A stretch of DNA of 60,737 nt from a virus (IMGVR_UViG_3300025699_000009:1-60737), one strand, 5' to 3'; positions 4,201 through 58,595 are shown, numbered from the stretch's first letter. Numbers and translations are program-made. The notes: a model not told the origin generated them from the sequence alone.

Positions 4201-7200
4201 CAAGCGCGCTTGGCTTCATGTTGTACACCAAGGTATAGTTACCCTTGGCTGCGCCTATGATTATCTTCTTAGCTGAAGCCTCGTCAATCGATGCCCATGC
4301 TGCCTTACCGAAGACACCCTCCTGCAGTGGGAAGAACGGGCCACCCATACGCTGAGAGTCAACCTTGAGTTGGTCAGCCATAGCAAGGTTGATGTCTTGT
4401 CCCACCAACTCTGACAGTGGTATACGCGCTATCTTAGCGACAAGCTCTTGGTTCTCAGTAACCAAGATTGGAACCGTCGCCATGGTCGGTGCTTCTACAT
4501 CAAAATCATTTTCGGCAAGCTCAGGACTCACCTCGTTCATCAGGTCGATAGCCTGCTGCACCTCCTCCGAGGTAGCGAGAGAACCATCAGTAGTTGCCTC
4601 AAGCATGAACTGACGAGTCGGCGAGGTAGCTTGGTCATACTTAAGAACCCTTGTTGGCGTAGTGTATCCTGCAGGCACCTTCTGACGTCCTATAGCACCC
4701 CCGGCTGCGCTCGGCAAAGTCTCAATAACATACTTGTTCTTTTCTGCAAGAGCTTCTTTAATCAACGCCTTCTGAGCGCGGTCAAGCGGAGTGGCAGAGA
4801 TAAACGTGGTGGCGATATATCCGGGACGGTTACCCGTATCTAGCACTGAACCCTCTTCATACAGGGTGTAGTAATAGACACCATCCACCTGCTTTTCTTT
4901 GAAGGTGGTTTTTTGCTCTCTTCCACGTTGTATGTCAAGGGCCATGGGGTCAAAATTTGCATCAACCCCCGGTGGCATTACCTTGGTGCCCGTCATGGTG
5001 AATGCTTCTAAACCATTTCGATTGCCAAACACTGCAAACCTTCCGGCTCGAATAGGAGCCATCATTCGTTCCTTATCAGCGGAGGCTCGCTCTTCAGGGC
5101 TGCGCCTAGTCTCTTGCTCTTGCATTGCCGCAAGGCGACGAGCTTTACCTGCAGACCATTTATTGATAGCTCGACCATAAGCTTCTTGTGATGCAAAGTC
5201 TGACTCTTGCAACGGGAACTGCTCTGCTTGTATCTCTTCAACTGTATTCCCTTCTTGTCTAGATGCCAAAAGCTCCGCCTCAATTTCCGTGTTTGTCTGC
5301 TCAGGGGCGGGGGTTTGAACCCCCGCTTCAGCGGTTGCTGTGGTTTCGTCCACTGCTACCTCCGCCGCAGGCTGTGTTTCTTCTACCGTAGCTTCAGCCG
5401 CTTCGCTCTCGGCTAACACCACCTTGTCAACACGTCGTTGCAATGCAATCTGTTCCGATGTGGACAGCCCACGCTTATCCGCTGCTTTCGTTGCCTTGGT
5501 CAGCGCACGACCTACTGCGGCGAGCTTAGCTCTTTCAGAACGGGTACGGTTAGAAGGCTCCTTCTCCTCAATAGCTTCAATCTCTGCACTCCGCATACGA
5601 CGTAGCCACTTAAAGTATAGCTCTGCGAGCGGGTCAGTCAGGGCTATCTCCTCCTGAGTAGCCGTCTCCTCTACCACGGCAGGTGCTGTTTCCTCTACTA
5701 CCTCAGCTTCCGGGGTAGGGCTAATGCTTTCTACATCTACGCCCGCCAACGTAGCTATACGCTGTAGCTGTTCGGGCGTAGCAGGCGTTCGCCCATCAGG
5801 ACGGAAAAATTTTGGAAGCGGCTTCCCTTGCTTGACGTTTCGGGAAGCTAAGAAAATCTTACGCTCTTCCTGAATAGCTTCTATCTCAGCAGCTTCCTGC
5901 TCTTTTAATGTTTCGAGCGCAGCCGTTTTAGCAGGAGAATCTACGCGCCTTTTAATTTTTGCTCGCTCTCTTTTGTATTTGCCCTTGGCTTCCGATACTT
6001 CCCTTTCTCGTGCGTTGATGTTAAGGGTCATAATATCTACGTCCATCTCACCTTCCGCGACAGGCTCAGGAGCTACCTCCTCAACGGCTGCTTCTTCTAC
6101 TGCCTCAACAGGTGGAGCAAACAACCCTTCATCAACGGCAAGCTCCTCGGAAAGAGCATCGGCCTCTGCCGCCACGTCCTGCTCCTGAGAAGAGAGTACC
6201 TCTTGTTGGAACTTGGTAAGCTTCTTACCTGCGGTTTGTCGAGCTTCAATACCTGCGACGATACCATCAAGGCGGGCAGGGTCAATGGTTCCGTTTCTAA
6301 ACGCAGTTACGTCCGACCGAACGGGTCGGTCGATTACTTCTACTTGCGCTTCTTCTTCAACCGTCGCTTCTGCAGCTTCGTCTTGGGCTTCAATCGGTTG
6401 GGTAGTTTCCCCTGATTCGGGTACTCCTTCTCCCACTTCTGCGCTATCTCCGGATGGTTCGCGTGTAGGAACTTCCTCTGTGCTTGGCTCTTGAATGGCA
6501 TCTTCTTCTACTACTGTGGTTTGAATGTCCGTGTTGGCATCCGCTGCGGCCTCTGCCACGGTCGGCTCAGCATTTATCTTTTCAACAAGAAGTGCTGATG
6601 TCTCAGGGTCATTCTTTACCTGTGAATTTCTTTGGAGTCGTCGCAGTGCGAGCGGGCCTGCGCTCTCAACATACGAAACAAATTCCTCCTTTGTCATGTA
6701 CTGCTTGCCCACCCTGTAGGAAGCTACACCCTGACGGCTAAAGCCTACAATATTCAGGGCATCGAGATTGATAGGGGCTTCGGGTATCTTTCCTGTCTCT
6801 GCTATCATTCGTATCTCCTCATTGATAGCCTTGATAGTTCCTCGGAATACTTCCGCACGGTTACTTGTAGAGGACAGCCCCTCGCGAACTGCCATAAGCT
6901 CCATGAGGCGGGTGCGCTCTTTAGTCTTTCCATCAAGCGCACGACCTATGCTTCCGCTTGGAGATGTAACCTCTAACAGGTCATTGGCCTCTCTTCGAAG
7001 AGCCATGTTTTCAAGGATGCGCTGCCCCTGCTCAGCGGTAATCTTTCCTAAGCGGGTCATGTTATCCGTCCATCGCTGTATCTGAGTATCGCTTGAACCA
7101 TCCTCAGCCATCTTAACAACGTCCATCAGCTCGTTGGCAATACGTTGGTTGTTGTTGCCAAGCGTTGACTTCGCGATGTTCATAGAAGCATTGATGGTTT

Positions 7201-46117: not shown

Positions 46118-46136
46118 TAACTTTTAACATTCATTG

Positions 46137-46168: not shown

Positions 46169-46216
46169 TACTATCAATCACGGAGGAACACTCCTCCACT
46201 AAAATCTCTCTCTATC

Positions 46217-46552
46217 ATGCGTAGACAACGCAACCCCCACACGAGCGGTGAGAACCGCAACCATTACACCAAAGGCTATCAGGCCAAGGTGGAGTTTTGG
46301 ACAGGCCAACTGCTACAGCCTGACGGCAGGTACTCGCACGAGCGAGTCATGCAATCGCTCCTTCACTTCCAATCTAAGCAACAGGAATGGTGCGAGGCAA
46401 ACGAGACAATGCTCATGGCTAAATTCGAAGATGCCTGTCGTGCAGGACACGGCACGCTGAACGCTCAGGTAGACTTCATGGGCTTCGGTCAGCAGGCCAC
46501 ATTGCACTGCCGTGACATCGTTACAGCACAGCAAAACAAGCGTCAGTCATGA
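46217..46552 (+). CDS. Early hypothetical protein (111 aa)
   Basis: ATG at 46217 after the TCTCTCTC leader. Confidence 0.7.
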   Translation: MRRQRNPHTSGENRNHYTKGYQAKVEFWTGQLLQPDGRYSHERVMQSLLHFQSKQQEWCEANETMLMAKFEDACRAGHGTLNAQVDFMGFGQQATLHCRDIVTAQQNKRQS

Positions 46553-46671
46553 AGCAGTTCGCAGAAGAAGCACTCATCATGGCACTGACTGCGATAGCAT
46601 TCGTTGCGTTCCTTGCAATGGCCTGCTATCTCCATGACTCTTTAGAGTACATTCCAAACCCTATCAAGTAA
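46549..46671 (+). CDS. Small membrane protein (40 aa)
   Basis: MKQFAEEALIMALTAIAFVAFLAMACYLHDSLEYIPNPIK; ATGA-coupled. Confidence 0.6.
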   Translation: MKQFAEEALIMALTAIAFVAFLAMACYLHDSLEYIPNPIK

Positions 46672-46677
46672 TCAATC

Positions 46678-46887
46678 ATGCAAACACCAAGCAACACAAG
46701 TGTCAAAAAGGAGGACGAGCTATGGGTATTCGCGGCATTCCATTACGGATGGATGATGAAGGACTTCAAATCAGTCAACGTCCGAGAGTTTGCCGAAGAA
46801 ATCGGTTTGCCCTACGAGCAGGCATTATATGTGTCTGACAACTATGAACGCTTGCTCAAAGAGCACGGTCACCTCTTCTCTTACTAA
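46678..46887 (+). CDS. Early hypothetical protein (69 aa)
   Basis: Operon packing. Confidence 0.65.
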   Translation: MQTPSNTSVKKEDELWVFAAFHYGWMMKDFKSVNVREFAEEIGLPYEQALYVSDNYERLLKEHGHLFSY

Positions 46888-46897
46888 TCTTCAATCA

Positions 46898-46919
46898 GGT
46901 GGGGGTTCAAACCCCCACC
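46898..46919 (+). repeat. GGGGGTTYRAACCCCC hairpin element
   Basis: GGTGGGGGTTCAAACCCCCACC, 10 nt after the stop. Confidence 0.9.
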
Positions 46920-46934
46920 ATAAATCTCTCTCTC

Positions 46935-47195
46935 ATGAAATTCTACAGAACATTCATGGTCTCGTATCAAGCACCAACAGAACACAAAGGTGCGCGAGTC
47001 CGAATCAAAGACCTCTCCGAAGGCACACGTATCTTCATCCCATTCAACTACGAGTTGAACACCATCACAGAGATGGCGAAGGCTCACCTTAAATCAATTG
47101 GGATTCCAATCGTGGCTGAGGCACTCACCCACAAATCAGGATGGGACTCTTACCTGCTACTCTCGAACGAGTACGTAAACCTCCTTGAGAAATGA
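46935..47195 (+). CDS. Early hypothetical protein (86 aa)
   Basis: ATG at 46935 after AAATCTCTCTCTC; Y..PT..KGARV.I pattern. Confidence 0.7.
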   Translation: MKFYRTFMVSYQAPTEHKGARVRIKDLSEGTRIFIPFNYELNTITEMAKAHLKSIGIPIVAEALTHKSGWDSYLLLSNEYVNLLEK

Positions 47196-47347
47196 TTAAG
47201 GCAGGCATCCAATTTCGTACTGCCACATGGCGTGAGTGGTACATAGTCAAGACATTCAAGAATCAACCACACATGGACAACTTCATTGAATACATCTGTC
47301 GAACCAAAGGCTACACCTTGGATGAGGTATGGCACTTAAATAAATAA
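47192..47347 (+). CDS. Early hypothetical protein (51 aa)
   Basis: MIKAGIQFRTATWREWYIVKTF...; ATGA-coupled. Confidence 0.6.
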   Translation: MIKAGIQFRTATWREWYIVKTFKNQPHMDNFIEYICRTKGYTLDEVWHLNK

Positions 47348-47349
47348 TC

Positions 47350-47760
47350 ATGAAGACATACTTCAACGAAGAAGGACAGCATCAAGCTGACTTCGATAGG
47401 ATGTGGGACGCATACGTACCCGCACAAGGCGAGGCTGACACAGCACACGGAGAAGCCATCCGTATCATCGCGCGATTCTCTTACGACATCTACAACAACG
47501 GAGGAGGCAACCTCTTCGAGAATGATGAAGACTACACTTGGAATCCTTACTACTCAGCCATGGCTGACAACCTCACAGAGTTCATGATAGGTTCAGGGTT
47601 GGATATCAGGCGAGAGATACGCCATGTAGTAACAGTTGGTATTGACCGACATGGATGGGATGAAGTTGTATCCCGATTCGAACCATTGATGGATGCCGTC
47701 ATCAGACGCGCACTGCACGAAGAAGAAGTTTCATTATCTAAAAAAGAACACCATGCCTAA
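47350..47760 (+). CDS. Early hypothetical protein (136 aa)
   Basis: VPAQGEADT..GE.IR...YDIYNNGGGN pattern seen in phage early proteins. Confidence 0.75.
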   Translation: MKTYFNEEGQHQADFDRMWDAYVPAQGEADTAHGEAIRIIARFSYDIYNNGGGNLFENDEDYTWNPYYSAMADNLTEFMIGSGLDIRREIRHVVTVGIDRHGWDEVVSRFEPLMDAVIRRALHEEEVSLSKKEHHA

Positions 47761-47986
47761 TATGTCATACTGCCGTTTTGAAAACACGTCCAACGACCTT
47801 GAGGATTGCGTAGATGCAATCAACAGCGAGCGATGCTTACGCGATGAAGGACTCGACAAGTACGAGCGAAGAGGGTTACTGAAGATACTAAATCTTGCCA
47901 AGCAAATTGTCAAGGAAGAAGAGTACATCCGCAAGCTACTAACTCACGACCATAGACCATGGAACGAACCTCATAGCAATGGGTAG
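47753..47986 (+). CDS. Early hypothetical protein (77 aa, NMSYCRFENT..DL.DC)
   Basis: Recurrent phage motif; start at the ATG at 47753. Confidence 0.7.
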   Translation: MPNMSYCRFENTSNDLEDCVDAINSERCLRDEGLDKYERRGLLKILNLAKQIVKEEEYIRKLLTHDHRPWNEPHSNG

Positions 47987-48023
47987 CTGTGCTTGAGAGA
48001 CTGCACAGCATCCATACGGGGGG

Positions 48024-48047
48024 TGGTGGGGGTTCAAACCCCCACCA
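48024..48047 (+). repeat. GGGGGTTYRAACCCCC hairpin element
   Basis: TGGTGGGGGTTCAAACCCCCACCA. Confidence 0.9.
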
Positions 48048-48080
48048 TCTTTCTCCCCTAAAAAAAAATATCTCTCATCA

Positions 48081-48112
48081 TTTGGAATTAGACATCTTTT
48101 GTACTATCTTTG
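48081..48112 (+). promoter_or_regulatory. Early promoter P3
   Basis: TTTG-N20-TATCTTTG with GAATTAGACAT in the spacer. Confidence 0.8.
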
Positions 48113-48143
48113 TACAATCATTAATCATTTAAACACATCTCTC

Positions 48144-49175
48144 ATGTGCGTTATCATTATCAAACAACAGACCGACAAGGTCATAGACCAAACCATACTG
48201 CGCTCGTCTGCGCGTATCAACCCACACGGGTTAGGAGTTACATGGCTCGACACATTCAAGACAGAGTACTATAACTCAGCAGACTACGATGTGCTTGAAA
48301 CCAAGCGACCCTTCATCGCACACTTCCGATACGCTACCATAGGTGGGGTGACTCAGCACAATATGCACCCATTCGTATGCGGTACTCAAGACCACGAGCT
48401 ACTCATGATGAACGGTACAATCAAAGGATTGGGTGACAAGACAGATTGCGACAGCCGAGTTCTAGCAGGTATGCTCGGAGAACTGCCGCGTGATACATGG
48501 AAGGATACATTGGAGGAGCACGAGTGCCGATTCACTACCATCAATACCAAGGCTCGCACCTTTGAGATATACAACGAAGATATGTGGCACACGCATGACG
48601 GCATCATGTACTCAAAGCCCAACGTCCTGTTCACCAACACGATTGCGGTATACGGTACGCTCAAGAAGGGACAGGGCAATCACCCACGATTCCTGTCACG
48701 AGCAGAGTTCGTAGGTTCAGGTATCACGCAGGACAAGTACCCGCTCTTGATTGACGGACTACCTTACCTGCTACCTGAAAAGGGGACAGGTCACCGAGTA
48801 GAGATGCACGTGTTCCGTGTGACGGACGAGATGCTATACGATGTGGACATACTCGAAGGTCATCCACGTTGGTATGTGCGTGAGCAGATACCTGTCCATG
48901 TGGGTAGCGAGACGCACATGGCTTGGACATACTTCAACCCCAAGCACCGACAGCCATCTGATGAGATGCACTACACGTTCCCTGCGCCCTCACCATGGGA
49001 CGCTGATATGGCTGAAGACGATGAGCTTCTGCCCCTTGAATATGGCAACGCATACTACTGCCTTAATTGCTTCAACGCGGTAGAGAAAGATAACTCAGCC
49101 TTTGATACATACACCTGCAAGACTTGCAGTGAGAGCTTTGATGAAGCAGAACTAAACCAATACAAATTATTCTAA
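48144..49175 (+). CDS. Class II glutamine amidotransferase fused to gamma-glutamylcyclotransferase (AIG2-like) and a Zn ribbon (343 aa)
   Basis: N-terminal MC, NPHG.G, HFRYAT.G, HPF, NGTI, DSR; then VYGTLK.G..NH, LEGHP..Y.R, AW.Y; CLNC/CKTC at the C-terminus. Confidence 0.85.
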   Translation: MCVIIIKQQTDKVIDQTILRSSARINPHGLGVTWLDTFKTEYYNSADYDVLETKRPFIAHFRYATIGGVTQHNMHPFVCGTQDHELLMMNGTIKGLGDKTDCDSRVLAGMLGELPRDTWKDTLEEHECRFTTINTKARTFEIYNEDMWHTHDGIMYSKPNVLFTNTIAVYGTLKKGQGNHPRFLSRAEFVGSGITQDKYPLLIDGLPYLLPEKGTGHRVEMHVFRVTDEMLYDVDILEGHPRWYVREQIPVHVGSETHMAWTYFNPKHRQPSDEMHYTFPAPSPWDADMAEDDELLPLEYGNAYYCLNCFNAVEKDNSAFDTYTCKTCSESFDEAELNQYKLF

Positions 49176-49429
49176 TGGACAAGAATAGAATACCCGACTG
49201 CCTTAATTGGATGACCGATGACATGGTAGGTGCAGGAGCACCTGCCGATGCAGGTGAAGCCAAGTTAAACGAATGGCTCTATGAGTTCTTTGACGAGTAC
49301 GAATCAGGAATCATGGAGTACATACAAAACGCCATGCAAGAGTTCGTGCAATCAAAAGAACCTGTAGAGTACGGAGAAGATGAGCGAGGATGCGACAAGT
49401 ACCATCAACAAAAAGATGACGCGCTATGA
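49175..49429 (+). CDS. Acidic hypothetical protein (84 aa)
   Basis: TAATG-coupled. Confidence 0.6.
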   Translation: MDKNRIPDCLNWMTDDMVGAGAPADAGEAKLNEWLYEFFDEYESGIMEYIQNAMQEFVQSKEPVEYGEDERGCDKYHQQKDDAL

Positions 49430-49605
49430 GTGACAACATAACACCACTGAGTAAAGAGATAGCTCAGGTCATAATGAATCGGATTGTCCTTAAACGCATA
49501 ACACCATCAGGCGTTGATGACTACAAGGATATAATGAGTGAGATAGAATCAGCGGTAAGCGAGATGCTAGTACAAATAGATAACCACTTTTGCGATGAAC
49601 AGTAA
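49426..49605 (+). CDS. Hypothetical protein (59 aa)
   Basis: Hand-translated; ATGA-coupled. Confidence 0.5.
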   Translation: MSDNITPLSKEIAQVIMNRIVLKRITPSGVDDYKDIMSEIESAVSEMLVQIDNHFCDEQ

Positions 49606-49741
49606 AGAGATACAAGGCTTGATTGAATACGTAGAGAATCCTGACAACAGGATGCAAGGCGGATACCACGTAACAGACGTGGAGATGTTAAACATAGTGA
49701 TGAATAAACTTAAAAGATTAGCAAAAAATATAGAGCAATGA
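49595..49741 (+). CDS. Hypothetical protein (48 aa)
   Basis: Hand-translated; ATGA-coupled to the next gene. Confidence 0.5.
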   Translation: MNSKEIQGLIEYVENPDNRMQGGYHVTDVEMLNIVMNKLKRLAKNIEQ

Positions 49742-50097
49742 ATCACACATTTAAAAACAACGGTCTGATTGCAGACTTTATGGGGAAGCCCCGACACCAA
49801 GAGTACAAGACCTTCTTCAGGGTAGAGAACGAGGACGGCTCTGTAGGTATGGTACACGCTGAAGACTTCAAGTATCACACCTCGTGGGATTGGCTGATGC
49901 CTGTGGTACAAAAGATAAGCAACATGAAAGAGGTGGAGGTTGAGTTCACTATAGGTGACAGGTTTGTTTGGGTGACTGCTGAATTCGGGGACAGCGTGTT
50001 CTTTAGCGGTAATAACCCTGAAGACAAGAAAGAACCAATGATATCAAAAGTTTATCGTGGGGTTGTGAGTTACATAGAAAAAACATCAGAGCAATGA
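49738..50097 (+). CDS. Hypothetical protein (119 aa, LIADFMG / YHTSWDWLMPVV motif)
   Basis: Motif recurrent in Bacteroidota phages. Confidence 0.75.
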   Translation: MNHTFKNNGLIADFMGKPRHQEYKTFFRVENEDGSVGMVHAEDFKYHTSWDWLMPVVQKISNMKEVEVEFTIGDRFVWVTAEFGDSVFFSGNNPEDKKEPMISKVYRGVVSYIEKTSEQ

Positions 50098-50300
50098 ACA
50101 AAAAGACATACCCATTCAGTGAAGGAGACGAGTACTACTCAGTGGTCACCCGCGATGACGGACGAACAGAACTAATTTGGTCTATATGGGATGACGTCAG
50201 CGAAGAGATGCATGACAAAAATCCTCAGCAACTTTACTACACCACCAACCACGCACTTGAATTGGCTCGCATCAAGCCATGCTCAATTATTCTTTATTAA
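50094..50300 (+). CDS. Hypothetical protein (68 aa)
   Basis: ATGA-coupled. Confidence 0.6.
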   Translation: MNKKTYPFSEGDEYYSVVTRDDGRTELIWSIWDDVSEEMHDKNPQQLYYTTNHALELARIKPCSIILY

Positions 50301-50314
50301 ACTATATTTACACC

Positions 50315-50563
50315 ATGGCTGTACTAATTAAATCAGATGGTAGTCAGCACGACTACCCAAACTACACCACCCTCGAAGGCAAGCAAGCCGCTGTCGGTGG
50401 ATACATTGAACCCGTATACCTTGACAACAAGGTGTTACTCGTGAATGAAGAAGGTCTCATTCATCAGCTACCCGTTAACGAAACCGCTTCCGCGATGGCA
50501 CAGCAGATACTTGTTGGTGACATCCTTCTCCTGACGAGGGAAGAGTGGAACGAAAACAATTGA
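50315..50563 (+). CDS. DUF3846-like protein (82 aa)
   Basis: LE..Q.AVGGYIE.V, VNEEG....LPVN, LVGD; -7 box TATATTTA 4 nt upstream. Confidence 0.75.
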   Translation: MAVLIKSDGSQHDYPNYTTLEGKQAAVGGYIEPVYLDNKVLLVNEEGLIHQLPVNETASAMAQQILVGDILLLTREEWNENN

Positions 50564-50564
50564 T

Positions 50565-50936
50565 ATGAAAGAATTTTTTAAAGGGGCGTTGGTCAACGCC
50601 AAGTATTACGGCGACACTGAAGCCCGCATCGCAGAGCTGAAGAAGCTCCAAGGAAAAGAAAAGTATAATGTATCAGACCTATCCAAGTTTGGTAAGCTTA
50701 TGCCACGCGAAAAGTTTGAGGAACAGTACCCGTTCCTGTGCGACAACCTACACAAAGATTGCACAGACGTGTGGATGTATCTTCAGAACTATTTCGTGCA
50801 AGCACTGAACACTGGAAGGTTCTACAACAATCAGTTCACGAAACGCGGAAAGACAGAGAAGGATATCAAAAAGATAGAAGAATATATCTTTGAGAAGATA
50901 GAAAAAATGTCTAAAGAATCCTTGGTTTCTGTCTAA
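50565..50936 (+). CDS. Hypothetical protein (123 aa)
   Basis: Operon packing. Confidence 0.65.
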   Translation: MKEFFKGALVNAKYYGDTEARIAELKKLQGKEKYNVSDLSKFGKLMPREKFEEQYPFLCDNLHKDCTDVWMYLQNYFVQALNTGRFYNNQFTKRGKTEKDIKKIEEYIFEKIEKMSKESLVSV

Positions 50937-50952
50937 TAGTTTCGTATCTTTA
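50921..50952 (+). promoter_or_regulatory. Promoter P4 upstream of the replication module
   Basis: CTTG-N20-TATCTTTA with inverted motif TGTCTAAT in the spacer. Confidence 0.55.
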
Positions 50953-50976
50953 CATCATCATTAATCATTCTCTCTC

Positions 50977-51174
50977 ATGTCTAAAATTAAACAGACCCTT
51001 GGCGAAAGCCAACACGATGACACGTTCCTTGATGACACCTTCCGTGTTCAACAACGAACGATTGTACCCACACCCTACATCATAGGTGCTATTCGTCAAA
51101 TCTTTGACGACCAACTATTTGCTATCCAAATGGAGCAAGCCAAATCTAAATCTAATGAAACGAAACATCTTTGA
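50977..51174 (+). CDS. Hypothetical protein (65 aa)
   Basis: TCTCTCTC leader. Confidence 0.6.
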   Translation: MSKIKQTLGESQHDDTFLDDTFRVQQRTIVPTPYIIGAIRQIFDDQLFAIQMEQAKSKSNETKHL

Positions 51175-51457
51175 GCAATATGTATCAGCAGTAAGCCAAC
51201 GCTTCGACGTTCCCAAGGAGGAACTGTTCAGCAAGAAGAAGCATCGACACTTGGTTGATGCAAGACATATGCTGTACTACCTGTGTGCCAAGCGACCAAT
51301 GAACATCAGCTACATTCAGATGTACATGGCCGACAGCGGATACGATATCTGTCATTCATCCATCATCCATGGAATCAAGAAGGTCACCCAACAGGTAGAG
51401 GCAGACCAAGATTATCAGTCATTGATTTCTGATATCAACAATCATCTTTCATCATAA
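51155..51457 (+). CDS. DnaA C-terminal-like helix-turn-helix protein (100 aa)
   Basis: V...FDV..EELFSK.K...LVDARH...YL...HSSIIHGIKKV; start at the ATG at 51155. Confidence 0.75.
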   Translation: MKRNIFEQYVSAVSQRFDVPKEELFSKKKHRHLVDARHMLYYLCAKRPMNISYIQMYMADSGYDICHSSIIHGIKKVTQQVEADQDYQSLISDINNHLSS

Positions 51458-51476
51458 CGGGGGTTTAAACCCTCAC
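51458..51476 (+). repeat. Degenerate GGGGGTTYRAACCCCC hairpin element
   Basis: CGGGGGTTTAAACCCTCAC immediately after the stop. Confidence 0.7.
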
Positions 51477-51490
51477 TTAAATTCAACGCA

Positions 51491-52105
51491 ATGGAAAAGA
51501 AACAATCAGTGTTTCATACTTTGTCGGCTCTCAATGTCAAGGACAAAGTTCGTAAGAAGAACAACCTGAGCTACGTCTCATGGTCAGATGCTTGGGCTAT
51601 GCTCAAGAAGCTTTACCCCACCGCACAGCGCACCATCTATGAGCATGAGCATACAGGGTTCTGCTACTTTACCGACGGCAATACCGGATGGGTAAAGGTG
51701 GGCATCACAGTGGAGAACATAGAGCACATTGATATGCTACCCATCATGAACTTCCGCAACCAAAGCATCACAGTGGATAATATCACGTCGATGGATGTGA
51801 ACAAAGCAATCCAACGTGCGACAGTGAAGGCCATAGCTATGCACGGTCTTGGACTCGCCGTCTATCAGGGCGAAGACTTGGAGGACGTAGCTCCGCCCGC
51901 ACCAAAGCCCAAGCCAAAGGCAGAGGGTAAGGAGAAGCTCACCACCAAGGGTGACAAGTGGGTAGCTGCTGTCAACTACTTCACCAAGAATGCGCAGACA
52001 GATATCGCAGAGCTGTTCAAGTTCGTGGAGAAAAGCTACGACCTGCCACCACGTGTGAAGGCCAAGCTCAAGGAGGTACACGCTCAAGCTCAGACCAATG
52101 GTTGA
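51491..52105 (+). CDS. Single-strand annealing protein (Sak/DUF1071-like)
   Basis: KKNNLSYVSWSDAW...LPIMNFRN...DVNKAIQR..VKAIAMHGLGL.VY.GED. Confidence 0.8.
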   Translation: MEKKQSVFHTLSALNVKDKVRKKNNLSYVSWSDAWAMLKKLYPTAQRTIYEHEHTGFCYFTDGNTGWVKVGITVENIEHIDMLPIMNFRNQSITVDNITSMDVNKAIQRATVKAIAMHGLGLAVYQGEDLEDVAPPAPKPKPKAEGKEKLTTKGDKWVAAVNYFTKNAQTDIAELFKFVEKSYDLPPRVKAKLKEVHAQAQTNG

Positions 52106-52829
52106 TATCATTGAGCAACTCAGAGACGACTCAAACTACTACGGCAAGGTAGGTAGGCAGTATCTATCCAACTCGGACATAGGTACTTTGCTTACTAACC
52201 CCGCAGAGTTTGGTGTCAAGCGCGAAGACAATGTGAACTTTGCCAAGGGCAGGTTATTCCATCAGTCAATCCTTGAGCCGGACAAAGCACGTGACTTCTT
52301 GCACATCGATGTAAGCACACGCACTACGAAAGCATACAAGGAGTTCATCGCTGAGAACAACGTCCCTTTCTGCTTGCTGACCAAGGAGGTCAACGAGATA
52401 CTTGATTCAGTAGAGAAGATGATGTCCAACTTCACATTCTTCTCAATGATATTCAAGCAGGGTGCAACATATGAACAGCCTGCTGTTGGAGAAATCATGG
52501 GGCGTATGTGGAAGGGCAAGGCAGACATCGTTACTGACGATGCCGTGTATGACCTGAAGACAACGGGTGACATCAACAGCTTTGCTCGGTCAGCTAAGAG
52601 GTACAACTACGACAGTCAAGCCTACATCTACGAACAGTTATTCGGAAAGCGTATGCAGTTCTTAGTGATAGACAAGACGACCGGATGCCTTGGTCACTAC
52701 ACCGTATCAGATGAGTTCGTTCTCGATGGTGCGCGGAAAGTATCCAAAGCCATTGAGGTTTACGATAAGTATTTCTCTGCTGATGCACCGGATGATATCA
52801 GTTCATTCTACATAACTGATGTTCTTTAA
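52098..52829 (+). CDS. PD-(D/E)XK exonuclease (RecE C-terminal/DUF3799-like)
   Basis: LSNSDI, GRLFH..ILEP, KGKAD, DLKTT, Y.Y..QA.IY. Confidence 0.8.
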   Translation: MVDIIEQLRDDSNYYGKVGRQYLSNSDIGTLLTNPAEFGVKREDNVNFAKGRLFHQSILEPDKARDFLHIDVSTRTTKAYKEFIAENNVPFCLLTKEVNEILDSVEKMMSNFTFFSMIFKQGATYEQPAVGEIMGRMWKGKADIVTDDAVYDLKTTGDINSFARSAKRYNYDSQAYIYEQLFGKRMQFLVIDKTTGCLGHYTVSDEFVLDGARKVSKAIEVYDKYFSADAPDDISSFYITDVL

Positions 52830-52943
52830 AAGAAAAACCTTGCGGATAGAAGTTCCAACTGTCCGCGACACTTCACAAGCCAAGCAAGACTTGATTGATG
52901 CAGTGGCAATTTTTTTGGAGCATGAAATAAAAGTTACTTGCAA

Positions 52944-53255
52944 ATGTCAAATGACAAAAAAAAAGAACCCGCCATTTGGGTGGACGGTCTTCGAATCTTT
53001 GAGGTCAAGGAAGGCCAAGGCCGCTCTTGGGGAATCGGAGACATCGTGATAGACCCTGATGTGTTCATCGCTTGGTTACACAAACAACCACGTAGGGAGG
53101 ATGGTGCCGTCCGGATTGCCGTGAACCTGAGCGACCGCACAGGGAATTGGTATACCCAACTCGACACCTTCGTCCCGAAGAAGAAACAGGAGGAAGCTCC
53201 CGCACCTCAACCCGCTCCCCCGGTTGAGGCAGAGGAAGAGGACACTCCCTTCTAA
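52944..53255 (+). CDS. Putative single-stranded DNA-binding protein (103 aa)
   Basis: Beta-rich core, Pro-rich linker, acidic EEEDTPF tail; next to recombination genes. Confidence 0.65.
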   Translation: MSNDKKKEPAIWVDGLRIFEVKEGQGRSWGIGDIVIDPDVFIAWLHKQPRREDGAVRIAVNLSDRTGNWYTQLDTFVPKKKQEEAPAPQPAPPVEAEEEDTPF

Positions 53256-53259
53256 TGCA

Positions 53260-53289
53260 GGGGGGTGGGGGTTCAAACCCTCACCCCCT
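53260..53289 (+). repeat. GGGGGTTYRAACCCCC hairpin element (extended, one G-U)
   Basis: GGGGGGTGGGGGTTCAAACCCTCACCCCCT, 4 nt after the stop. Confidence 0.8.
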
Positions 53290-53308
53290 TTGTGTTAATT
53301 ATCAACGT

Positions 53309-53448
53309 CCCTATTGTTCTTTTATATTTTATTCTATCTTTACTTTCCTTCCCTTACGTGAAAGAAAAGATAACATTTTCAACATCACAACTGAAAATCA
53401 ATTAGTTACCTCCTCCAATTCAACACCATCTCGACATGACCTCGACAC
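53309..53448. other. Origin-like element B upstream of the primase gene
   Basis: AT-rich tract, IHF-type AATCAATTAGTTA, YRACAY repeats; degenerate copy of 43201-43342. Confidence 0.5.
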
Positions 53449-55868
53449 AGAAGAACACAACTATCTTCAAAAACATCCACGATACAGAGACAGCCTACTA
53501 CATTACGACTAAGAAAGCTCTTGACCGAATCAAAGACGGCACATCCAAGCCCTTGATTCAAAAGATTCGTGACCGCAACATCAGCAAGGCGGAGAGACAA
53601 GAGCTGAAGAAGCAACTGCCTGCCATCTGCTTCAGTGGAATCTTCGTTCGGCGTAAGGATGATAGCCTGCAGGAACACAGCGGTATCATCTGCTTAGACT
53701 TCGACGACTACGAAAAAAGAAAAGATTTGATGGCCGAGAAAGAACGGCTATCCAAGGACAGGTATGTTTACTCTGTCTTTGAATCACCATCAGGTCTCGG
53801 CCTGAAAGCATTGGTGCGTATCCCGCCCATCCCTGAGCGACACGTACAGTATTTCAATGCGCTTGATAAATACTTCAGTAGCCCACACTTCGATAAATCA
53901 AGTAAGAATGTTGGGCGTGTATGCTATGAATCATACGACCCCACCATCCACATCAATTCTGAATCAGAGGTATGGACTCGCATCGAAGAGCCGGAGTACC
54001 TAGAGGTGGTGGCGCATCGTGACCCACCGACCATACCAATAACAGACGAGACAAAGATTGTAGACATCCTCATTAAGTGGTGGATAAAGAAGTACCCAAT
54101 GGTGGAAGGGCAACGCAACCACAACACCTTCGTACTTGCCATGGCCTTCAATGATTATGGTATCAACAAAAGCTTAGCATCCCACGTGCTACGTCAGTAC
54201 GCATCATCTGACTTCACGCAGGAAGAGATTACTCGCACGATTGATTCAGCGTACAGCCACACCGAGAACTTCAACACGAAGTATTATGAGGATGACGGGC
54301 ACATCAATCAAGTCAAGACCTTGCTCAAAAGCGGAGTGTCAAAAAAAGAAATCCGCTCTCAACTAAAAGAAACCTGCAATCTTGAGAGCGATGTAATAGA
54401 TGCAGTGCTGAGCCGACTCGAAGAAGAGAATGAGCAGGTATCCTTTTGGACGAAGTCAGAGAAGGGTGTAATCAAGATAGACCACCTTGAGTTCAAGAAC
54501 TTCTTGGAAGAGCATGGCTTCTACAAGTATTGTCCCGAAGCAAGCAAGAACTATGTGTTCGTCAAGGTGACCAACAACCTGATTGACCATACGTCAGAGA
54601 AAGAGATTAAGGATTTCATTCTGTCGTACCTGCTTACCATCGACGACCGCACCATCTATAACTTCTTCGCTGACTCAGTGCGATTCTTTCGCGAGGAGTT
54701 CTTAACCCTGCTTGCAACGATAGACATCTACTTCATCAAGGATACCAAGGATGCATCCTACCTGTACTACCTGAACTGCGCAGTTAAGATTGCGACCGAT
54801 GGCATCAGCATCATAGACTACATCGACCTTGGTGGATACGTATGGAAGGAGCACGTCATCAACCGCAACTTCTTGGAGTGTGAGTACGAGGGCTGTGACT
54901 TCTCTATGTTCATCGGCAACGTGTGCAACAATAACGAGAGCAGGAAAGAAACCATGGAGAGTACCATCGGTTACCTAATGCATGGATACAAGAACCTGAG
55001 CTACTGCCCTGCCGTCATCCTCAATGACGAGGTCATCTCTGATAACCCTGAAGGGGGGACAGGCAAGGGATTAATCATGAACGCTTTGTCGCATATGAAG
55101 AAGCTCGTCGTTATCGATGGCAAGGCGTTTGCCTTTGAGCGTTCCTTCCCGTATCAGTTGGTGTCTGCTGACACACAGATTCTCTGCTTCGATGACGTAA
55201 AGAAAAGCTTTGACTTCGAGCGATTGTTCAGCGTGGTTACCGAAGGCTTGACCCTTGAGAAGAAGAACAAGGATGCTATCAAGATTCCCTTTGACAAGTC
55301 TCCGAAGATTGCCATCACAACTAACTACGCTATCAAGGGTGCAGGCAATAGCTTCGCCCGAAGGAAGTGGGAGCTTGAGCTACATCAGCACTACAACAAA
55401 AGCAACACCCCGGTGATGGAGTTTGGTAAACACTTCTTTGCTGATTGGGATGACGAGGATTGGTGCAGGTTTGACAACTACATGATTCACTGCCTTATCA
55501 AATACTTGGACAAGGGATTGGTTAAGAGCGCATTCATCAACCTCGGTATACGTCAGCTCTCTGCGGCTACATCACATGACTTCATCGAGTGGTGCGGACT
55601 CATCAACAACCAACAACCCAACAGGCTGTTAGCTCTGCATGAGAAGAACCACATGAACGACATCTATGTGGACTTCATCACTGAGTATCCTGACTATGCG
55701 CCCAAGGCAAAGATGACTATCTCTCGTCAGATGTTTCACCGATGGCTTGTGAGTTACGCTATGTACAAGCATGGCGTAGAGCCGGAGACAGGAAGAGATG
55801 CACGAGGTAAGTGGATGCGTATGCGACACAAGCATGAGCTTGAGGTACAAACATCCTTCCCGGTATGA
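53436..55868 (+). CDS. Primase-helicase (VirE-N/BT4734-like primase, PriCT, P-loop helicase; 810 aa)
   Basis: KKQLPAICFSG, CLDFD, SPSG.GLK, GQRN...F.LA, Walker A GGTGKG, Walker B LCFDD, ITTN. Confidence 0.85.
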   Translation: MTSTQKNTTIFKNIHDTETAYYITTKKALDRIKDGTSKPLIQKIRDRNISKAERQELKKQLPAICFSGIFVRRKDDSLQEHSGIICLDFDDYEKRKDLMAEKERLSKDRYVYSVFESPSGLGLKALVRIPPIPERHVQYFNALDKYFSSPHFDKSSKNVGRVCYESYDPTIHINSESEVWTRIEEPEYLEVVAHRDPPTIPITDETKIVDILIKWWIKKYPMVEGQRNHNTFVLAMAFNDYGINKSLASHVLRQYASSDFTQEEITRTIDSAYSHTENFNTKYYEDDGHINQVKTLLKSGVSKKEIRSQLKETCNLESDVIDAVLSRLEEENEQVSFWTKSEKGVIKIDHLEFKNFLEEHGFYKYCPEASKNYVFVKVTNNLIDHTSEKEIKDFILSYLLTIDDRTIYNFFADSVRFFREEFLTLLATIDIYFIKDTKDASYLYYLNCAVKIATDGISIIDYIDLGGYVWKEHVINRNFLECEYEGCDFSMFIGNVCNNNESRKETMESTIGYLMHGYKNLSYCPAVILNDEVISDNPEGGTGKGLIMNALSHMKKLVVIDGKAFAFERSFPYQLVSADTQILCFDDVKKSFDFERLFSVVTEGLTLEKKNKDAIKIPFDKSPKIAITTNYAIKGAGNSFARRKWELELHQHYNKSNTPVMEFGKHFFADWDDEDWCRFDNYMIHCLIKYLDKGLVKSAFINLGIRQLSAATSHDFIEWCGLINNQQPNRLLALHEKNHMNDIYVDFITEYPDYAPKAKMTISRQMFHRWLVSYAMYKHGVEPETGRDARGKWMRMRHKHELEVQTSFPV

Positions 55869-57328
55869 GTGATATCATAGAGCGGATACCCGGATACACC
55901 GACGACATGATGCTCAATTGGTGTACGCTACTGCACCGCGTAGTCTCAGCAACAAAGACTGTGACTGTGGGCAGAGGAAGAAACGTAGAACGTATAGCTG
56001 TGCCGAAACACAACACCCACCCTGATGTGGTGGAGAGAATAAAGCGCAGCTTAGAATACTATCGTAATCAGGCAACCATGACATTTCAATTTAGAGACTA
56101 TCAAGAAGACATAATAAATCGAGCTGACCAAATCCTATCCGAACACGGCTTTGTTTATTTAGGGATGCAGGTCAGGACAGGCAAGACATTGACAAGCCTT
56201 GGCATCGCAGAGAAACGAGCTACTCAACATCGCGATGTTAACAACGTGCTGTTCCTCACAAAGAAGAAGGCCATCACAAGTATCACGGAAGACTCCAAGC
56301 TACTGTGTCCATCCTATGCTTTGTTCATCATCAACTACGAGAGTATGCACAAGCTTCCCGACATCTCATGGGACTTGATTGTGATGGACGAGGCGCACAG
56401 CATGGGTGCATTCCCTAAACCAAGCAACCGTGCGAAGAAGGTGAAGGAACTGATTACAAAGTGTAAGCCATTTGTCATCCTTATGTCAGGAACCCCCACC
56501 CCTGAATCGTACAGTCAGATGTACCATCAGGTGTATGGCATTCCCAACAATCCATTCGCTAAGCACAAAAGCTTTTACCGTTGGTCAGATGATTACGTGA
56601 TGGTCACGCAGAAGATTATTAACGGCAGGCCACGCAACAACTATCACAACGGACGAGACCGTATCCTAAAGGAGATGGAACCATACACCATCAACTACAC
56701 ACAGAAAGAAGCAGGCTTTAAGGTGGACACAAGGGAGCACATCATCAAGGTAAAGATGTCTGACAAGACGTATGATTTATGTAAGCGACTGAAGAAAGAC
56801 TTGGTTATCCAAGGAAAGAAAGAAATTATCCTAGCTGACACACCCGTCAAGCTTATGCAGAAACTCCATCAGATGTTCTCAGGCACAGTGAAGTTCGAGA
56901 GCGGAAAATATATGGTGATGGACGATACCAAGGCTGTGTTTATTCATGACAACTTTGGAGATAAGAAGATAGGCATCTTCTATAAGTTCGTAGCAGAACT
57001 CGATGCCTTGAAGAGTGTGTATGGTGATGGGCTTACCACAGATTTGGATGAGTTCAATAGCACCGACAAGAGCATAGCCCTTCAGATAGTCAGTGGGCGC
57101 GAGGGTATATCCCTACGTCAGGCTGAGGCATTGGTGTACTACAACATAGACTTCAGCGCAACAAGCTATTGGCAGTCACGCGATAGGATGACCACAAAGG
57201 AAAGGCTAACGAGCGATGTCTATTGGCTGTTCTCTGAGAACGGAATAGAATCTAAAATCTATAAGGCCGTCAAAGACAAGAAGGCATACACCGTTAATCA
57301 CTTTAAACAAGACGCGGATACTTTGTAA
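55865..57328 (+). CDS. SF2 (SNF2-like) helicase
   Basis: FRDYQ, TGKT, DEAH, SGTP, GREGISL, Q.RDR; an internal start at MTFQFRDYQ is possible. Confidence 0.85.
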   Translation: MSDIIERIPGYTDDMMLNWCTLLHRVVSATKTVTVGRGRNVERIAVPKHNTHPDVVERIKRSLEYYRNQATMTFQFRDYQEDIINRADQILSEHGFVYLGMQVRTGKTLTSLGIAEKRATQHRDVNNVLFLTKKKAITSITEDSKLLCPSYALFIINYESMHKLPDISWDLIVMDEAHSMGAFPKPSNRAKKVKELITKCKPFVILMSGTPTPESYSQMYHQVYGIPNNPFAKHKSFYRWSDDYVMVTQKIINGRPRNNYHNGRDRILKEMEPYTINYTQKEAGFKVDTREHIIKVKMSDKTYDLCKRLKKDLVIQGKKEIILADTPVKLMQKLHQMFSGTVKFESGKYMVMDDTKAVFIHDNFGDKKIGIFYKFVAELDALKSVYGDGLTTDLDEFNSTDKSIALQIVSGREGISLRQAEALVYYNIDFSATSYWQSRDRMTTKERLTSDVYWLFSENGIESKIYKAVKDKKAYTVNHFKQDADTL

Positions 57329-57339
57329 ATTGTCAGCAA

Positions 57340-57579
57340 ATGACGGAGCAACAAATTCAATCCAAGCGAATCAAACAGTTAGAAGCAGAAGGGTACTACG
57401 TCCTGAAGCTTATGCAAACAAACAAGAACGGAATCCCTGATGTGATTGCGATTCCTCCTAATTGCGGTGTGCTGTTCAGCGAAATAAAGACACCCAAGGG
57501 TAGGCTATCCAAGCTACAGGAGTACCGACTAAAAGAACTAAAGGCCCATGGCTTACGAACAGAAGTATACCGAGGATGA
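57340..57579 (+). CDS. VRR-NUC nuclease / Holliday junction resolvase
   Basis: E..IQ, GIPD, EIK...GRLS.LQ. Confidence 0.85.
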   Translation: MTEQQIQSKRIKQLEAEGYYVLKLMQTNKNGIPDVIAIPPNCGVLFSEIKTPKGRLSKLQEYRLKELKAHGLRTEVYRG

Positions 57580-57871
57580 GAAACCATACGAGCTTGATGA
57601 AGAGTTCGTAATGCAACTGCGTAGCATCTCTCGCAAGCAACTCGTGCGGGTATTGAATCTTCTCCACGACAACGCCGAGTATTTTACAGGCAAGATGGAT
57701 GATTACATGGAGATAGGTGGAGTCCTCAAAGGAAAGGAACCATTCTATTTCAAGGTCGGCTACGTGTACTACTATTCAACACTGCCTGTGTTGGTACAAT
57801 TTGAGGAGATATCCTCAGATGATTACTTGGATTTTATTTTAGCTGACTCTTATCTAATCGACTTTAATTGA
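57548..57871 (+). CDS. Hypothetical protein (107 aa)
   Basis: Operon packing. Confidence 0.65.
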   Translation: MAYEQKYTEDEKPYELDEEFVMQLRSISRKQLVRVLNLLHDNAEYFTGKMDDYMEIGGVLKGKEPFYFKVGYVYYYSTLPVLVQFEEISSDDYLDFILADSYLIDFN

Positions 57872-58426
57872 ATGAAGAACTTATTGACTGAAGAACTGCA
57901 AGGGTTGATTGCCCTTGTAAACGAGACCTGTGACTGTGATATCTTGGCAGGTGGTCGTAAAAGAAAGGACGTAGATGGGCGAATGATTTTCGCGCAGGTG
58001 TTGTGGATAAAGGGGATGACCAAGTCCGACATCGGTCGCATCCTAAACAAAGACCACGCTAGTGTGGTATACTACATCCGCAAGGTAGAATCATACATGA
58101 AGCACGATGCCATCCTTCGCCAACGCTACTCGTTTGTTCTTGATTCCTTCCTTCCCCCTGCTACACGCCACAACAAATACAACTACAGCAGATTTGATTT
58201 GCTTCAGGAGGTGATGCGATTGGAGGAAGAGTTGGTGAAACAAAAAGAAAAGACTGAGGCCATGTCGGATATTGCTCGTCGCAACTACCGTGAAGACGCC
58301 CGGCTCTCAGGTATTTACAAAATAATTAAAGACCGGATTCCCCTTGGGTTGGAGCATGAGGTAGAGCGCAAGCTTATTCATATTCTCAACGTAGGAGAGG
58401 AAGGATTAACACCAAGACGACCATGA
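57872..58426 (+). CDS. Second DnaA C-terminal-like HTH protein (184 aa)
   Basis: RKR..VDGR.IF...SDIGR.LNKDHASVVYY. Confidence 0.7.
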   Translation: MKNLLTEELQGLIALVNETCDCDILAGGRKRKDVDGRMIFAQVLWIKGMTKSDIGRILNKDHASVVYYIRKVESYMKHDAILRQRYSFVLDSFLPPATRHNKYNYSRFDLLQEVMRLEEELVKQKEKTEAMSDIARRNYREDARLSGIYKIIKDRIPLGLEHEVERKLIHILNVGEEGLTPRRP

Positions 58427-58578
58427 TGAGATGTCCACAATGCAACACCCAACTTCATTGGCAATCTGACTTTGACTATGATGATATGGGACACGAAGGA
58501 GAGGGAGTATGCGGGACTTACACCTGTCCTGAACCCAAGTGTATCATAGAGGATGTTCATATTTACATGAACGGATAG
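58423..58578 (+). CDS. Small Zn-finger protein (51 aa)
   Basis: MMRCPQCNTQLHWQSDFDYDDMGHEGEGVCGTYTCPEPKC...; ATGA-coupled. Confidence 0.65.
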   Translation: MMRCPQCNTQLHWQSDFDYDDMGHEGEGVCGTYTCPEPKCIIEDVHIYMNG

Positions 58579-58579
58579 C

Positions 58580-58595
58580 GGGGGTTTAAACCCCC
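58580..58595. repeat. GGGGGTTYRAACCCCC hairpin element
   Basis: GGGGGTTTAAACCCCC, 1 nt after the stop. Confidence 0.85.

Follow-up and report, generated by a model that had tools for sequence, protein, structure and literature searches.

The window analysed here is the whole of a single virus record of 60,737 bases (IMGVR_UViG_3300025699_000009:1-60737), rated complete. The minus strand carries the late and structural genes (about 43,164 to 2); genes for early functions, recombination, and replication occupy 44102–58578 of the plus strand. Both blocks, and the non-coding region between them, contain copies of a short GC-rich palindrome built on the 16-mer GGGGGTTYRAACCCCC, which is the subject of this analysis. 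The repetition is confirmed. Nine copies are exact (cores at 5309, 22328, 33073, 43808, 44773, 45919, 46901, 48028, and 58580) and two (51459 and 53267) have a single mismatch, CCCTC replacing CCCCC, compared with 0.00 exact and 0.03 one-mismatch copies expected from 100 dinucleotide-preserving shuffles. When a covariance model of 56 copies, drawn from five genomes, is run on the window, it recovers exactly these eleven sites and none else. Eleven dispersed hairpins had already been recognized in an earlier reading of this DNA (below, the sequence-only reading), whose coordinates correspond to the starts of the extended stems. The common unit is GGT GGGGGTTYRAACCCCC ACC, with stems reaching 8–15 bp through copy-specific flanks. 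These flanks are complementary (GC/GC, AGT/ACT, GGT/ACC, CGGT/ACCG, TGGT/ACCA, AGGGT/ACCCT), in agreement with the covarying arms described in the sequence-only reading.

The copies are placed and oriented with respect to transcription (Table 1). Eight of the 11 begin 0–10 nt past a stop codon, and in the long spacers (those with copies 44773, 45919, 53267, 58580, and 22328) the hairpin is always on the stop-codon side. The other three are 48028, somewhat farther behind a stop codon, 43808, in the divergent non-coding region, and 5309, within an open reading frame (ORF) for a giant virion protein. All seven copies with an asymmetric center read TTCAAA on the coding strand (five plus, two minus); the orientation of 43808 is ambiguous, its center being palindromic. 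The proximity to stop codons, the exceptional copy in the giant gene, and the uniform centers had all been noticed before and are borne out. Gene starts were read by eye, and several of the counts given here and below include orthologous, non-independent copies. The copy in the giant ORF is found at the same place in one relative (G002) but not in two others (G003 and G004), which have an 18-nt gap there in a poorly alignable stretch. ORF-internal copies, in the window and in relatives, are in frame and in acidic or proline-rich linkers (GVQTP/GVETP in the giant protein, GGSDPH in a 94-aa protein). At the equivalent of one of them (G003 25937), the window has a similar, non-pairing sequence.

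Table 1. Hairpin copies, ribozymes, other transcription signals, and selected genes in the 60,737-nt window. Core, first position of the 16-mer; Stop, nucleotides from the preceding stop codon.
Feature	Coordinates	Strand	Core	Stop	Remarks
Hairpin in giant virion-protein ORF	5307–5326	−	5309		Coding strand GCGGGGG TTCAAA CCCCCGC; encodes ..AGVQTP..
Hairpin after 477-aa capsid-like gene	22323–22348	−	22328	7	Followed by T8; canonical intrinsic terminator
Hairpin after 671-aa head-decoration-like gene	33068–33093	−	33073	7	Next ATG 15 nt on; T-rich tail
Hairpin in divergent region (about 0.9 kb) between GroEL/late and early blocks	43804–43827	.	43808		Center TTCGAA
Hairpin overlapping stop of first early gene (44102–44770)	44770–44791	+	44773	0	Type I hammerhead 3 nt downstream
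Hairpin after gene B (44930–45907)	45916–45937	+	45919	8	Abuts stem III of type III hammerhead
Hairpin	46898–46919	+	46901	10	Next ATG (46935) 15 nt on; no U-tract
Hairpin ending second early unit	48024–48047	+	48028	31	Stem up to 15 bp with G·U; 55 nt upstream of P3
Weak hairpin	51459–51474	+	51459	1	CCCTC, a G·U pair; −8.5 kcal/mol
Hairpin upstream of primase unit	53259–53290	+	53267	4	13–14 bp, one G·U; tail TTTGTGTT; terminator-like
Hairpin after zinc-ribbon ORF	58580–58595	+	58580	2	ORF of 51 codons
Type I hammerhead	44794–44843	+			Predicted cleavage after GUC at 44837; starts 3 nt behind hairpin 44770–44791
Type III hammerhead	45937–45991	+			Predicted cleavage after GUC at 45944; abuts hairpin 45916–45937
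Separate ordinary terminator	58661–58697	+			AATCCCCGG..CCGGGGATT plus TTCTTTT; closes plus-strand block, 65 nt past 58580 copy
Early promoter P1	44020–44056	+			TAGACAT..N..TATATTTG
Promoter P2	about 46140–46175	+			Resembles P1
Promoter P3	about 48085–48120	+			Resembles P1
Capsid-like major structural protein, 477 aa	22356–23789	−			
Portal	25001–27433	−			
Large terminase	27430–29727	−			
GroES	41270–41527	−			
GroEL	41524–43164	−			
Sak annealing protein	51491	+			
PD-(D/E)XK exonuclease	52098	+			
Primase	53436–55868	+			
SNF2 helicase	55865–57328	+			
Zinc-ribbon ORF, 51 codons	58423–58578	+			Two CxxC-type pairs; last plus-strand gene; outside 60-aa ORF list

Comparison of copies supports a structure folded in the sense transcript. 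Among 46 distinct rows (56 sense-oriented copies from the five genomes), the fraction of paired cells is 81.1% (shuffles, 72.6%) and the covariation score 0.298 (shuffles, 0.171); none of 500 shuffles reaches either the pairing or the covariation value, which is however not a probability because many rows are orthologues. Predicted energies are between −17 and −30 kcal/mol for nine of the 11 copies, as for the GC-rich RNA hairpins of intrinsic terminators. The fourth flank position is G-C, C-G, U-A, or G·U in different copies in the window. Core pairs 1, 3, 4, and 5 are invariant in the distinct rows, and pair 2 is GC, AU, or GU. Single-sided changes in the six core pairs, counted in oriented distinct rows, are G·U on the coding strand in every case (6/6), with no A·C; the opposite change is seen only in G003 and G004, at the 58580 site, which is between convergent genes. 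The series from GGGGG/CCCCC through GGGGG/CCCTC to GAGGG/CCCTC is a classic path via a wobble pair. The loop is TTCAAA in 23, TTTAAA in eight, and TTTGAA in two of 37 distinct oriented rows, and TTCAGA and TTGAAA are further variants. For the syntenic hairpin behind gene B, which could be compared across nine lineages, 78 of 81 cells are paired (96.3%) and seven of nine pairs show compensatory changes, again a value not reached in any of 500 shuffles.

Two of the hairpins are followed, at distances of 0–3 nt, by hammerhead ribozyme motifs, one of type I and one of type III, both missed in the sequence-only reading. They were detected with the Rfam models RF00008 and RF00163 at a relaxed threshold; at gathering level there is no match in the window. 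Both alignments extend over the full model length, with the core CUGANGA ... GAAA ... UH and three stems. Compensatory changes are found at three of 15 pairs for type I (three genomes) and five of 16 pairs for type III (five sequences), and the minimum-energy fold of 45905–46000 consists of the hairpin and then, at once, a three-way junction. Both motifs are conserved in G001–G004. A hairpin is paired with a ribozyme in G001 (which has two of type III), in G002 and G003/G004, and also at two metagenome loci, L082 (hammerhead at 849–903) and L095 (2270–2306); in L086 a hammerhead-like match ends 14 nt before a hairpin. L092, L094, L097, and L090 gave no hammerhead when searched. Prophage genes flanked by hammerheads have been reported, with processing of long phage transcripts proposed and their biological function called unclear (Perreault et al., 2011, PMC3088659).

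The 20-mer GTGGGGGTTYRAACCCCCAC has 21 matches in the viral collection, all within this clade, 14 of them in three 60-kb records and 7 aligning full-length. In 596 Gb of bacterial genomes it occurs in 14 stretches, none of which shares more than the 24–31-nt hairpin with the phage; because each of these is a long hairpin of its own in an unrelated organism, no host and no host-borne family is indicated. A literature search found no description of this hairpin, and its motif strings only in one unrelated plant paper.

The four complete relatives have 8–13 copies each, at syntenic sites. To judge from the sequences compared, stems are the same within a genome and different between genomes, which could not be seen from one genome alone. 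The GGGGG stem is shared by the window and G002–G004, while G001 has GAGGG/CCCTC in all eight copies and L082 has GAGAG in all six (GAGAGTTYRAACTCTC in L081/L082). A survey of 29 metagenome loci around relatives of the primase gene found further private hairpins: GTGTCTTCGAAGACAC in L086 (stem GTGTCT), GTCTGTTCNNACAGAC in L092 (GTCTG), GTCTCTTYRAAGAGAC in L096 (GTCTC), GTCCG..CGGAC in L094, L090, and L093, GGTGTCC-NNNN-GGACACC in L095 (GTGTCC), and GTGTCG-NNNN-CGACAC in L097/L098. Variously, they have a T-run behind, a start codon ahead, or a hammerhead adjoining; loops vary freely in L095 and L097. The GTGTCG stem is also that of phage MW202828 (L002), which has no window-type hairpin and instead 14 exact copies of GTGTCGTTAACGACAC, all between 43745 and 55154 (an early region of 11.4 kb); seven of these are 4–66 nt past a stop codon and 16–39 nt ahead of the next start. 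Other viral contigs (L073, L077–L079) also have GTGTCGTTAACGACAC, within acidic stretches that look coding. No repeated hairpin was found in four lineages with 5.7–8.8 kb of upstream cover (L087/L088, L091, L101, and L105), nor a hammerhead in the three of them searched, and no palindrome is repeated in Flavobacterium phage elemoF, a distant relative that has been cultured.

A primase tree places the GAGGG and GAGAG stems in one clade, with the GGGGG group as its sister, from which it follows that whole sets of copies changed the same pair in step. G003 has mixed states (GGGGG/CCCTC, GGGGG/CCTCC, GAGGG/CCCTC, and GAGGG/CCCCC). A 343-aa protein with an amidotransferase-like part and a GGACT domain is encoded in 15 of 16 hairpin-bearing sources and at none of eight hairpin-less loci, and gene B in nine sources; these associations may reflect only a shared early module.

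The relation to terminators differs among copies. An intrinsic terminator is described as a GC-rich hairpin followed immediately by a U-tract of 7–9 nt (PMC3993855). A tract of about this length directly behind the stem is a property of a subset only: four of the 11 have at least five T in the 8 nt behind the stem (22328, 33073, 53267, and 58580) and seven fall below this. The sequence-only reading had credited only the copy behind the major capsid gene with a clear U-tract; that copy does have T8, but the other three also reach five T in eight. By scan, 53259–53290 and 58577–58599 are terminator-like. A promoter-like TAnnTTTG box is found 55 nt behind 48028 and, in weaker form, behind 53267, and none behind other copies. 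At 46901 and 51459 polymerase would have to read through, because the next ATG is only 15 or 16 nt on (that of Sak in the second case, where the hairpin is behind a gene for a DnaA-C-like helix-turn-helix (HTH) protein) and there is no room for a promoter.

Comparison with relatives suggests where the hairpin came from. At the capsid-gene site, a hairpin plus T-run is present in all six genomes compared, with an unrelated stem in MW202828, and the distant phage elemoF has AGAGGGG TTAATT CCCCTCT plus T7 behind its capsid-like gene. L005 and L006 have G-run terminators directly upstream of the primase gene, equivalent to 53267 in the window. An ordinary terminator of the window at about 35880–35915 corresponds to a motif-bearing terminator in G002–G004, and lineage-own hairpins with T-runs occur elsewhere (L092 at 5616, L094 at 2152). 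The sequence-only reading had named two findings that would tell against it, a loop not conserved in relatives and copies all behaving as ordinary terminators. The loop is in fact conserved in the near clade and only 4/11 copies are terminator-like, although a terminator ancestry is apparent.

The reading favored here, with confidence about evenly balanced, is that the eleven elements represent one RNA hairpin of terminator origin marking cistron 3′ ends, where it either terminates transcription or protects and insulates the message. They would all be copies of this hairpin in the sense RNA that host polymerase makes from a podophage of the Bacteroidota type; the host group and the use of its polymerase are suggested by the nearest named phages and by three promoters with a TAnnTTTG box. 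The hairpin would descend from G-run/C-run intrinsic terminators such as those after the capsid gene or before the primase gene in distant relatives. Where there is a U-rich tail (22328, 33073, 53267, perhaps 58580), it would act as a terminator or attenuator. Where there is none (44773, 45919, 46901, 51459, and 48028), polymerase would read through, and the hairpin would serve as a 3′ boundary, stopping 3′-to-5′ exonucleases after the polycistronic RNA is cut and shielding the downstream fold from ribosomes completing the upstream gene. For two junctions, the hammerhead just behind would make the cut, which for type III would leave the upstream mRNA ending 7 nt past the hairpin. The likeness of copies within a genome and the differences between lineages would then reflect concerted evolution, and the shared 20–24-bp units may double as recombination points for swaps of early-gene cassettes. 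Of the functions offered in the sequence-only reading, a REP-like transcript 3′-end or processing element specific to this phage clade has fared best, in view of the covarying stems, the G·U-only changes, the positions next to stop codons, and the contacts with hammerheads.

A number of observations weigh against this reading. The copy at 58580 would be redundant as a 3′ protector because an ordinary terminator follows 65 nt later. Some copies are inside ORFs (5309 in the window, 17015 in G002, 25937 in G003, and 33620 in G004), as are seven of the 14 palindromes in MW202828, which are inside annotated genes. Both hammerheads score below the Rfam gathering cutoffs (31.9 bits compared with 34 for type I, E 1.4e-4; 45.7 compared with 48.5 for type III, E 2e-7), and the type I copy of G002 has C for the core U at position U4 (CCGAUGAG). 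The G·U bias could also be explained by C-to-T mutation of the non-template strand, and a hairpin of same-strand single-stranded DNA tolerates G·T equally. In public data, two RNA runs (X17 and X18), compared as contigs only with two DNA runs, give the same pieces at similar depth. Finally, a generic protective hairpin needs no invariant sequence; the invariant core pairs and the stem shared genome-wide therefore point to sequence-specific recognition or homogenization. Such uniformity could come from a sequence-specific reader, as four invariant pairs beside a free one and a sharply bounded unit might suggest, or from homogenization by recombination, with the mixed states of G003 and the phage's Sak and exonuclease genes in mind.

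The hairpin might be bound by a trans-acting factor specific to the lineage, which reads folded RNA or single-stranded DNA and co-evolves with its site. An antiterminator, a hairpin-specific endoribonuclease, or a stabilizing protein, of phage or host, would be conceivable. This alternative is considered possible but on the doubtful side. It would account for stems that are uniform within genomes and different between lineages, for syntenic sites that change together (6–9 copies altering the same pair in step between the GGGGG group and its GAGGG and GAGAG sisters), for the invariance of four of the five core G-C pairs across the 46 rows, and for a unit that ends sharply at about 20–24 nt. However, no candidate factor emerged: family scans of 63 window ORFs turned up nothing of an RNA-binding, Cas6-like, transposase, or antiterminator kind, and proteins found together with the hairpins resemble metabolic enzymes. 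The mixed stems of G003 fit slow homogenization as well as a tolerant factor, and the loops of L095 and L097 are not fixed. A recognized site could also be double-stranded, a 16-bp operator bound by a dimeric regulator of the phage (one of the HTH proteins at 40873, 51086, and 57872, for example), perhaps with stoperator-like silencing of transcription genome-wide; such an operator had also been offered in the sequence-only reading and is now judged unlikely. In its favor, the core is perfectly dyad-symmetric around a flexible pyrimidine-purine center, the half-sites of L095 and L097 with their free 4-bp spacer resemble classic operators, and half-sites changing together in all copies are what an altered protein specificity would produce. 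The 14 exact copies within 11.4 kb of early region in MW202828, half of them in genes, would also fit, and phage D29 provides a precedent in its stoperators, which are dispersed operator-like elements (PMC12266134). Nevertheless, complementarity extends beyond the shared unit through base pairs that differ from copy to copy, which a protein site does not need; deviations are G·U only; and the elements are fused to U-tracts and ribozymes, which are RNA contexts, and adjoin stop codons rather than promoters. The HTH proteins moreover diverge in step with the genomes (the 143-aa protein at 85–91%, 65%, and 46% identity), with no signal specific to the hairpin, and the one of 184 aa is missing from G001 and MW202828, both of which have hairpins.

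Two further readings were considered. According to one, the copies amount to palindromic repeats of a selfish or neutral kind, comparable to REP, to miniature inverted-repeat transposable elements (MITEs), or to Rickettsia palindromic elements (RPEs), which spread and are homogenized by recombination or template switching, persist chiefly where DNA is intergenic, and matter only as crossover points for the exchange of cassettes. Copies in frame within ORFs at differing places in different genomes, and the variable presence of 5309, are in keeping with this, as is a phage that encodes both an annealing protein and an exonuclease. So are the borders of sequence mosaicism: of 188 BLAST segment ends, nine lie no more than 12 nt from a hairpin or ribozyme module, compared with 1.97 expected (a comparison that does not control for intergenic DNA as such), and contigs of three of four runs (X17, X18, and X8, not X2) have a strain-variant junction at 44847, just behind the type I ribozyme. 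The promoter(early)-stem-loops (PeSLs) of T4-type phages, composite terminator/promoter motifs, are described as mediating modular shuffling (PMC4122927). On the other hand, the same sites are filled in lineages just 62–72% identical in primase, so the positions appear to be old and maintained rather than recent insertions, and the scanned ORFs include no transposase; the strong bias to the stop-codon side and in loop orientation, and the double use of the element, in the stems of real terminators and beside ribozymes, would not be expected either. This reading is considered unlikely. The least probable, and not supported, is that all copies are plain intrinsic terminators of host polymerase and nothing more. 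GC-rich stems behind stop codons, four T-rich tails, and the terminator ancestry are all as it would predict, and stems are longest at the ends of units (12, 15, and 13 bp at 22328, 48028, and 53267) and short at internal junctions (8, 8, and 5 bp at 44773, 46901, and 51459). But it leaves seven copies without a U-tract, two (46901 and 51459) at which termination would silence the next genes, and one (58580) with a separate terminator behind it, and ordinary terminators share no single sequence throughout a genome.

Other candidates were tried and set aside. Hairpin promoters for an N4-like phage RNA polymerase were dropped: no polymerase family was found among the scanned ORFs (the giant one included), there are promoters of Bacteroidota type, and the hairpins are at gene ends rather than starts. 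Punctuation by tRNA can be discounted, as ARAGORN found no tRNA in the window and the loop is not kept. The likeness to the T-loop consensus pointed out in the sequence-only reading is partial: a T arm has a 5-bp stem closed by G-C and a 7-nt UUCRANN loop, while the stable fold here has a loop of 6 nt, and the C at the third position is not kept. A T-arm mimic is accordingly rejected, the TTCRA signature being lost in relatives and the stems and loops of other lineages quite different. Analogy to integron attC sites or CRISPR repeats was dropped, with no integrase or Cas family in the ORF scans. Among possible readers of the hairpin, the three HTH proteins, gene A, and gene B were rejected because their divergence parallels that of the genomes, and the amidotransferase-GGACT fusion and gene B, which came from the presence/absence screen, because they look like enzymes.

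The cistron-end hairpin shares features with several known systems. In enterobacteria and pseudomonads, REP (repetitive extragenic palindromic) elements are short repeated palindromes behind operon stop codons that protect mRNA from 3′ exonucleases. The element here is likewise a repeated, extragenic, imperfect palindrome, specific to a lineage, homogeneous within a genome, located behind stop codons, and folded in the mRNA. It differs in belonging to a 60-kb phage, in having 11 copies rather than hundreds, and in its occasional U-tracts and two ribozyme fusions. No REP-associated tyrosine transposase (RAYT, of the Y1 type) was found among the scanned ORFs (64 with PHROGs, 41 with Pfam), which represent the phage genome only. 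In phage T7, RNase III cuts the polycistronic early RNA at hairpins, and the retained hairpin stabilizes the 3′ end of the upstream mRNA. The resemblance is in related hairpins punctuating an early polycistronic transcript, but stems of 8–15 bp with small loops are presumably too short for a typical RNase III site, and where cutting is indicated here it would be by a ribozyme. The stoperators of phage L5 are asymmetric duplex sites for the repressor of a temperate phage, unlike the covarying hairpin found here in a genome with no integrase or proven repressor. As in the L5/D29 case, the motif is short, dispersed, lineage-specific, intergenic, and in one orientation relative to transcription (PMC12266134).

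The PeSLs of T4-type phages are conserved terminator-like stem-loops among small early genes, at the borders of swapped cassettes (PMC4122927, PMC2839356). The modules here are similarly placed at borders of exchanged cassettes, as seen in the segment ends and in the block 45991–46890, which is swapped in G003 and G004 exactly between the end of the ribozyme and the next hairpin. The copy at 48028, with P3 behind it, may form a terminator-promoter composite. Most copies, however, are promoterless, and the lineage-specific covarying stem, Bacteroidota-type hosts, and hammerhead partner set them apart. As a separate observation, contigs break at 43792 and 43846, around hairpin 43808, in all four runs examined. 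The hammerheads of prophages, of types I and III, are likewise located between genes of the phage, and it is proposed that they divide long transcripts into gene-length mRNAs; the passages on these do not mention a fixed, repeated hairpin directly upstream (Perreault et al., 2011, PMC3088659), and here the hairpin is also found alone, at nine sites.

If the cistron-end reading is right, early mRNA ends in this phage would be set by a standard hairpin, supplemented in places by a self-cleaving ribozyme, which would suggest a role for some phage hammerheads. A more speculative extension, somewhat improbable as it stands, is that a private punctuation hairpin, a co-evolving factor acting on RNA or single-stranded DNA, and the hammerheads together make up a self-contained system for message ends, by which phage messages might be told apart from host transcripts or from those of relatives infecting the same cell. 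Changing the mark would then require 6–14 copies and the reader to change jointly, as in the GGGGG, GAGGG, and GAGAG series. Stems that are lineage-specific and uniform within genomes are a clean natural case of concerted evolution in a small RNA element, and a sequence-specific reader, or gene conversion driven by hairpins, could be sought directly through them. In addition, the hairpins flag exchange of early-gene cassettes, which bears on the diversification of abundant aquatic phages, and for annotation they mark cistron ends in a region where most early genes have no known family.

The closest named phages have Flavobacterium, Cellulophaga, and other Bacteroidota as hosts. The giant virion-protein ORF, of more than 3,260 codons, runs past the left end of the window and is probably continued at 58692–60737. 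Chaperonin genes are GroEL and two GroES-like ones (41270–43164, with the second at 29923–30543, all on the minus strand), as in Flavobacterium elemo phages. Family scans found no RNA polymerase, DNA polymerase, integrase, or transposase. A zinc-ribbon ORF is annotated in MW202828 as well, a possible counterpart of that at 58423–58578.

The TAnnTTTG box at −7 is typical of Bacteroidota promoters. P1–P3 are nearly identical, with the form TTGGAATTAGACAT..N..TAnnTTTGTAC, and a weaker promoter (TATCTTTA) precedes the primase gene, near 53330. Several early genes share, directly at the start codon, a leader rich in pyrimidines, AAATCTCTCTC(A)TCATG (44848–44865, 46205–46219, 46922–46937, and 48128–48146), which is found behind promoters, behind the type I ribozyme, and behind hairpin 46901. 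For gene B there is an Amidoligase_2-like lead (Atlas cluster score 0.96, with the family on 12% of members) but no Pfam match. The 343-aa protein (48144–49175, plus strand) starts MC.. and has weak class-II amidotransferase matches, a GGACT domain, and a C-terminal zinc ribbon.

Between the divergent blocks, 43165–44040 is about 0.9 kb of non-coding sequence without a convincing ORF. It has extra hairpins, GAGAGAGG..CCTCTCTC at 43353 and CCCGCGCCCACAGCGGG near 43767, and in G001 there are short CGTC-rich repeats at the equivalent position. This is possibly a replication origin; the genome has two DnaA-C-like HTH genes. DNA nearly identical to 43700–53600 (0.97–1.00 of sampled words) is present in 18 public runs, nearly all labelled marine metagenome. 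The stretch or part of it is contained in 20 run rows, three of them (X17, X18, and X20) recorded as RNA, from 17 studies.

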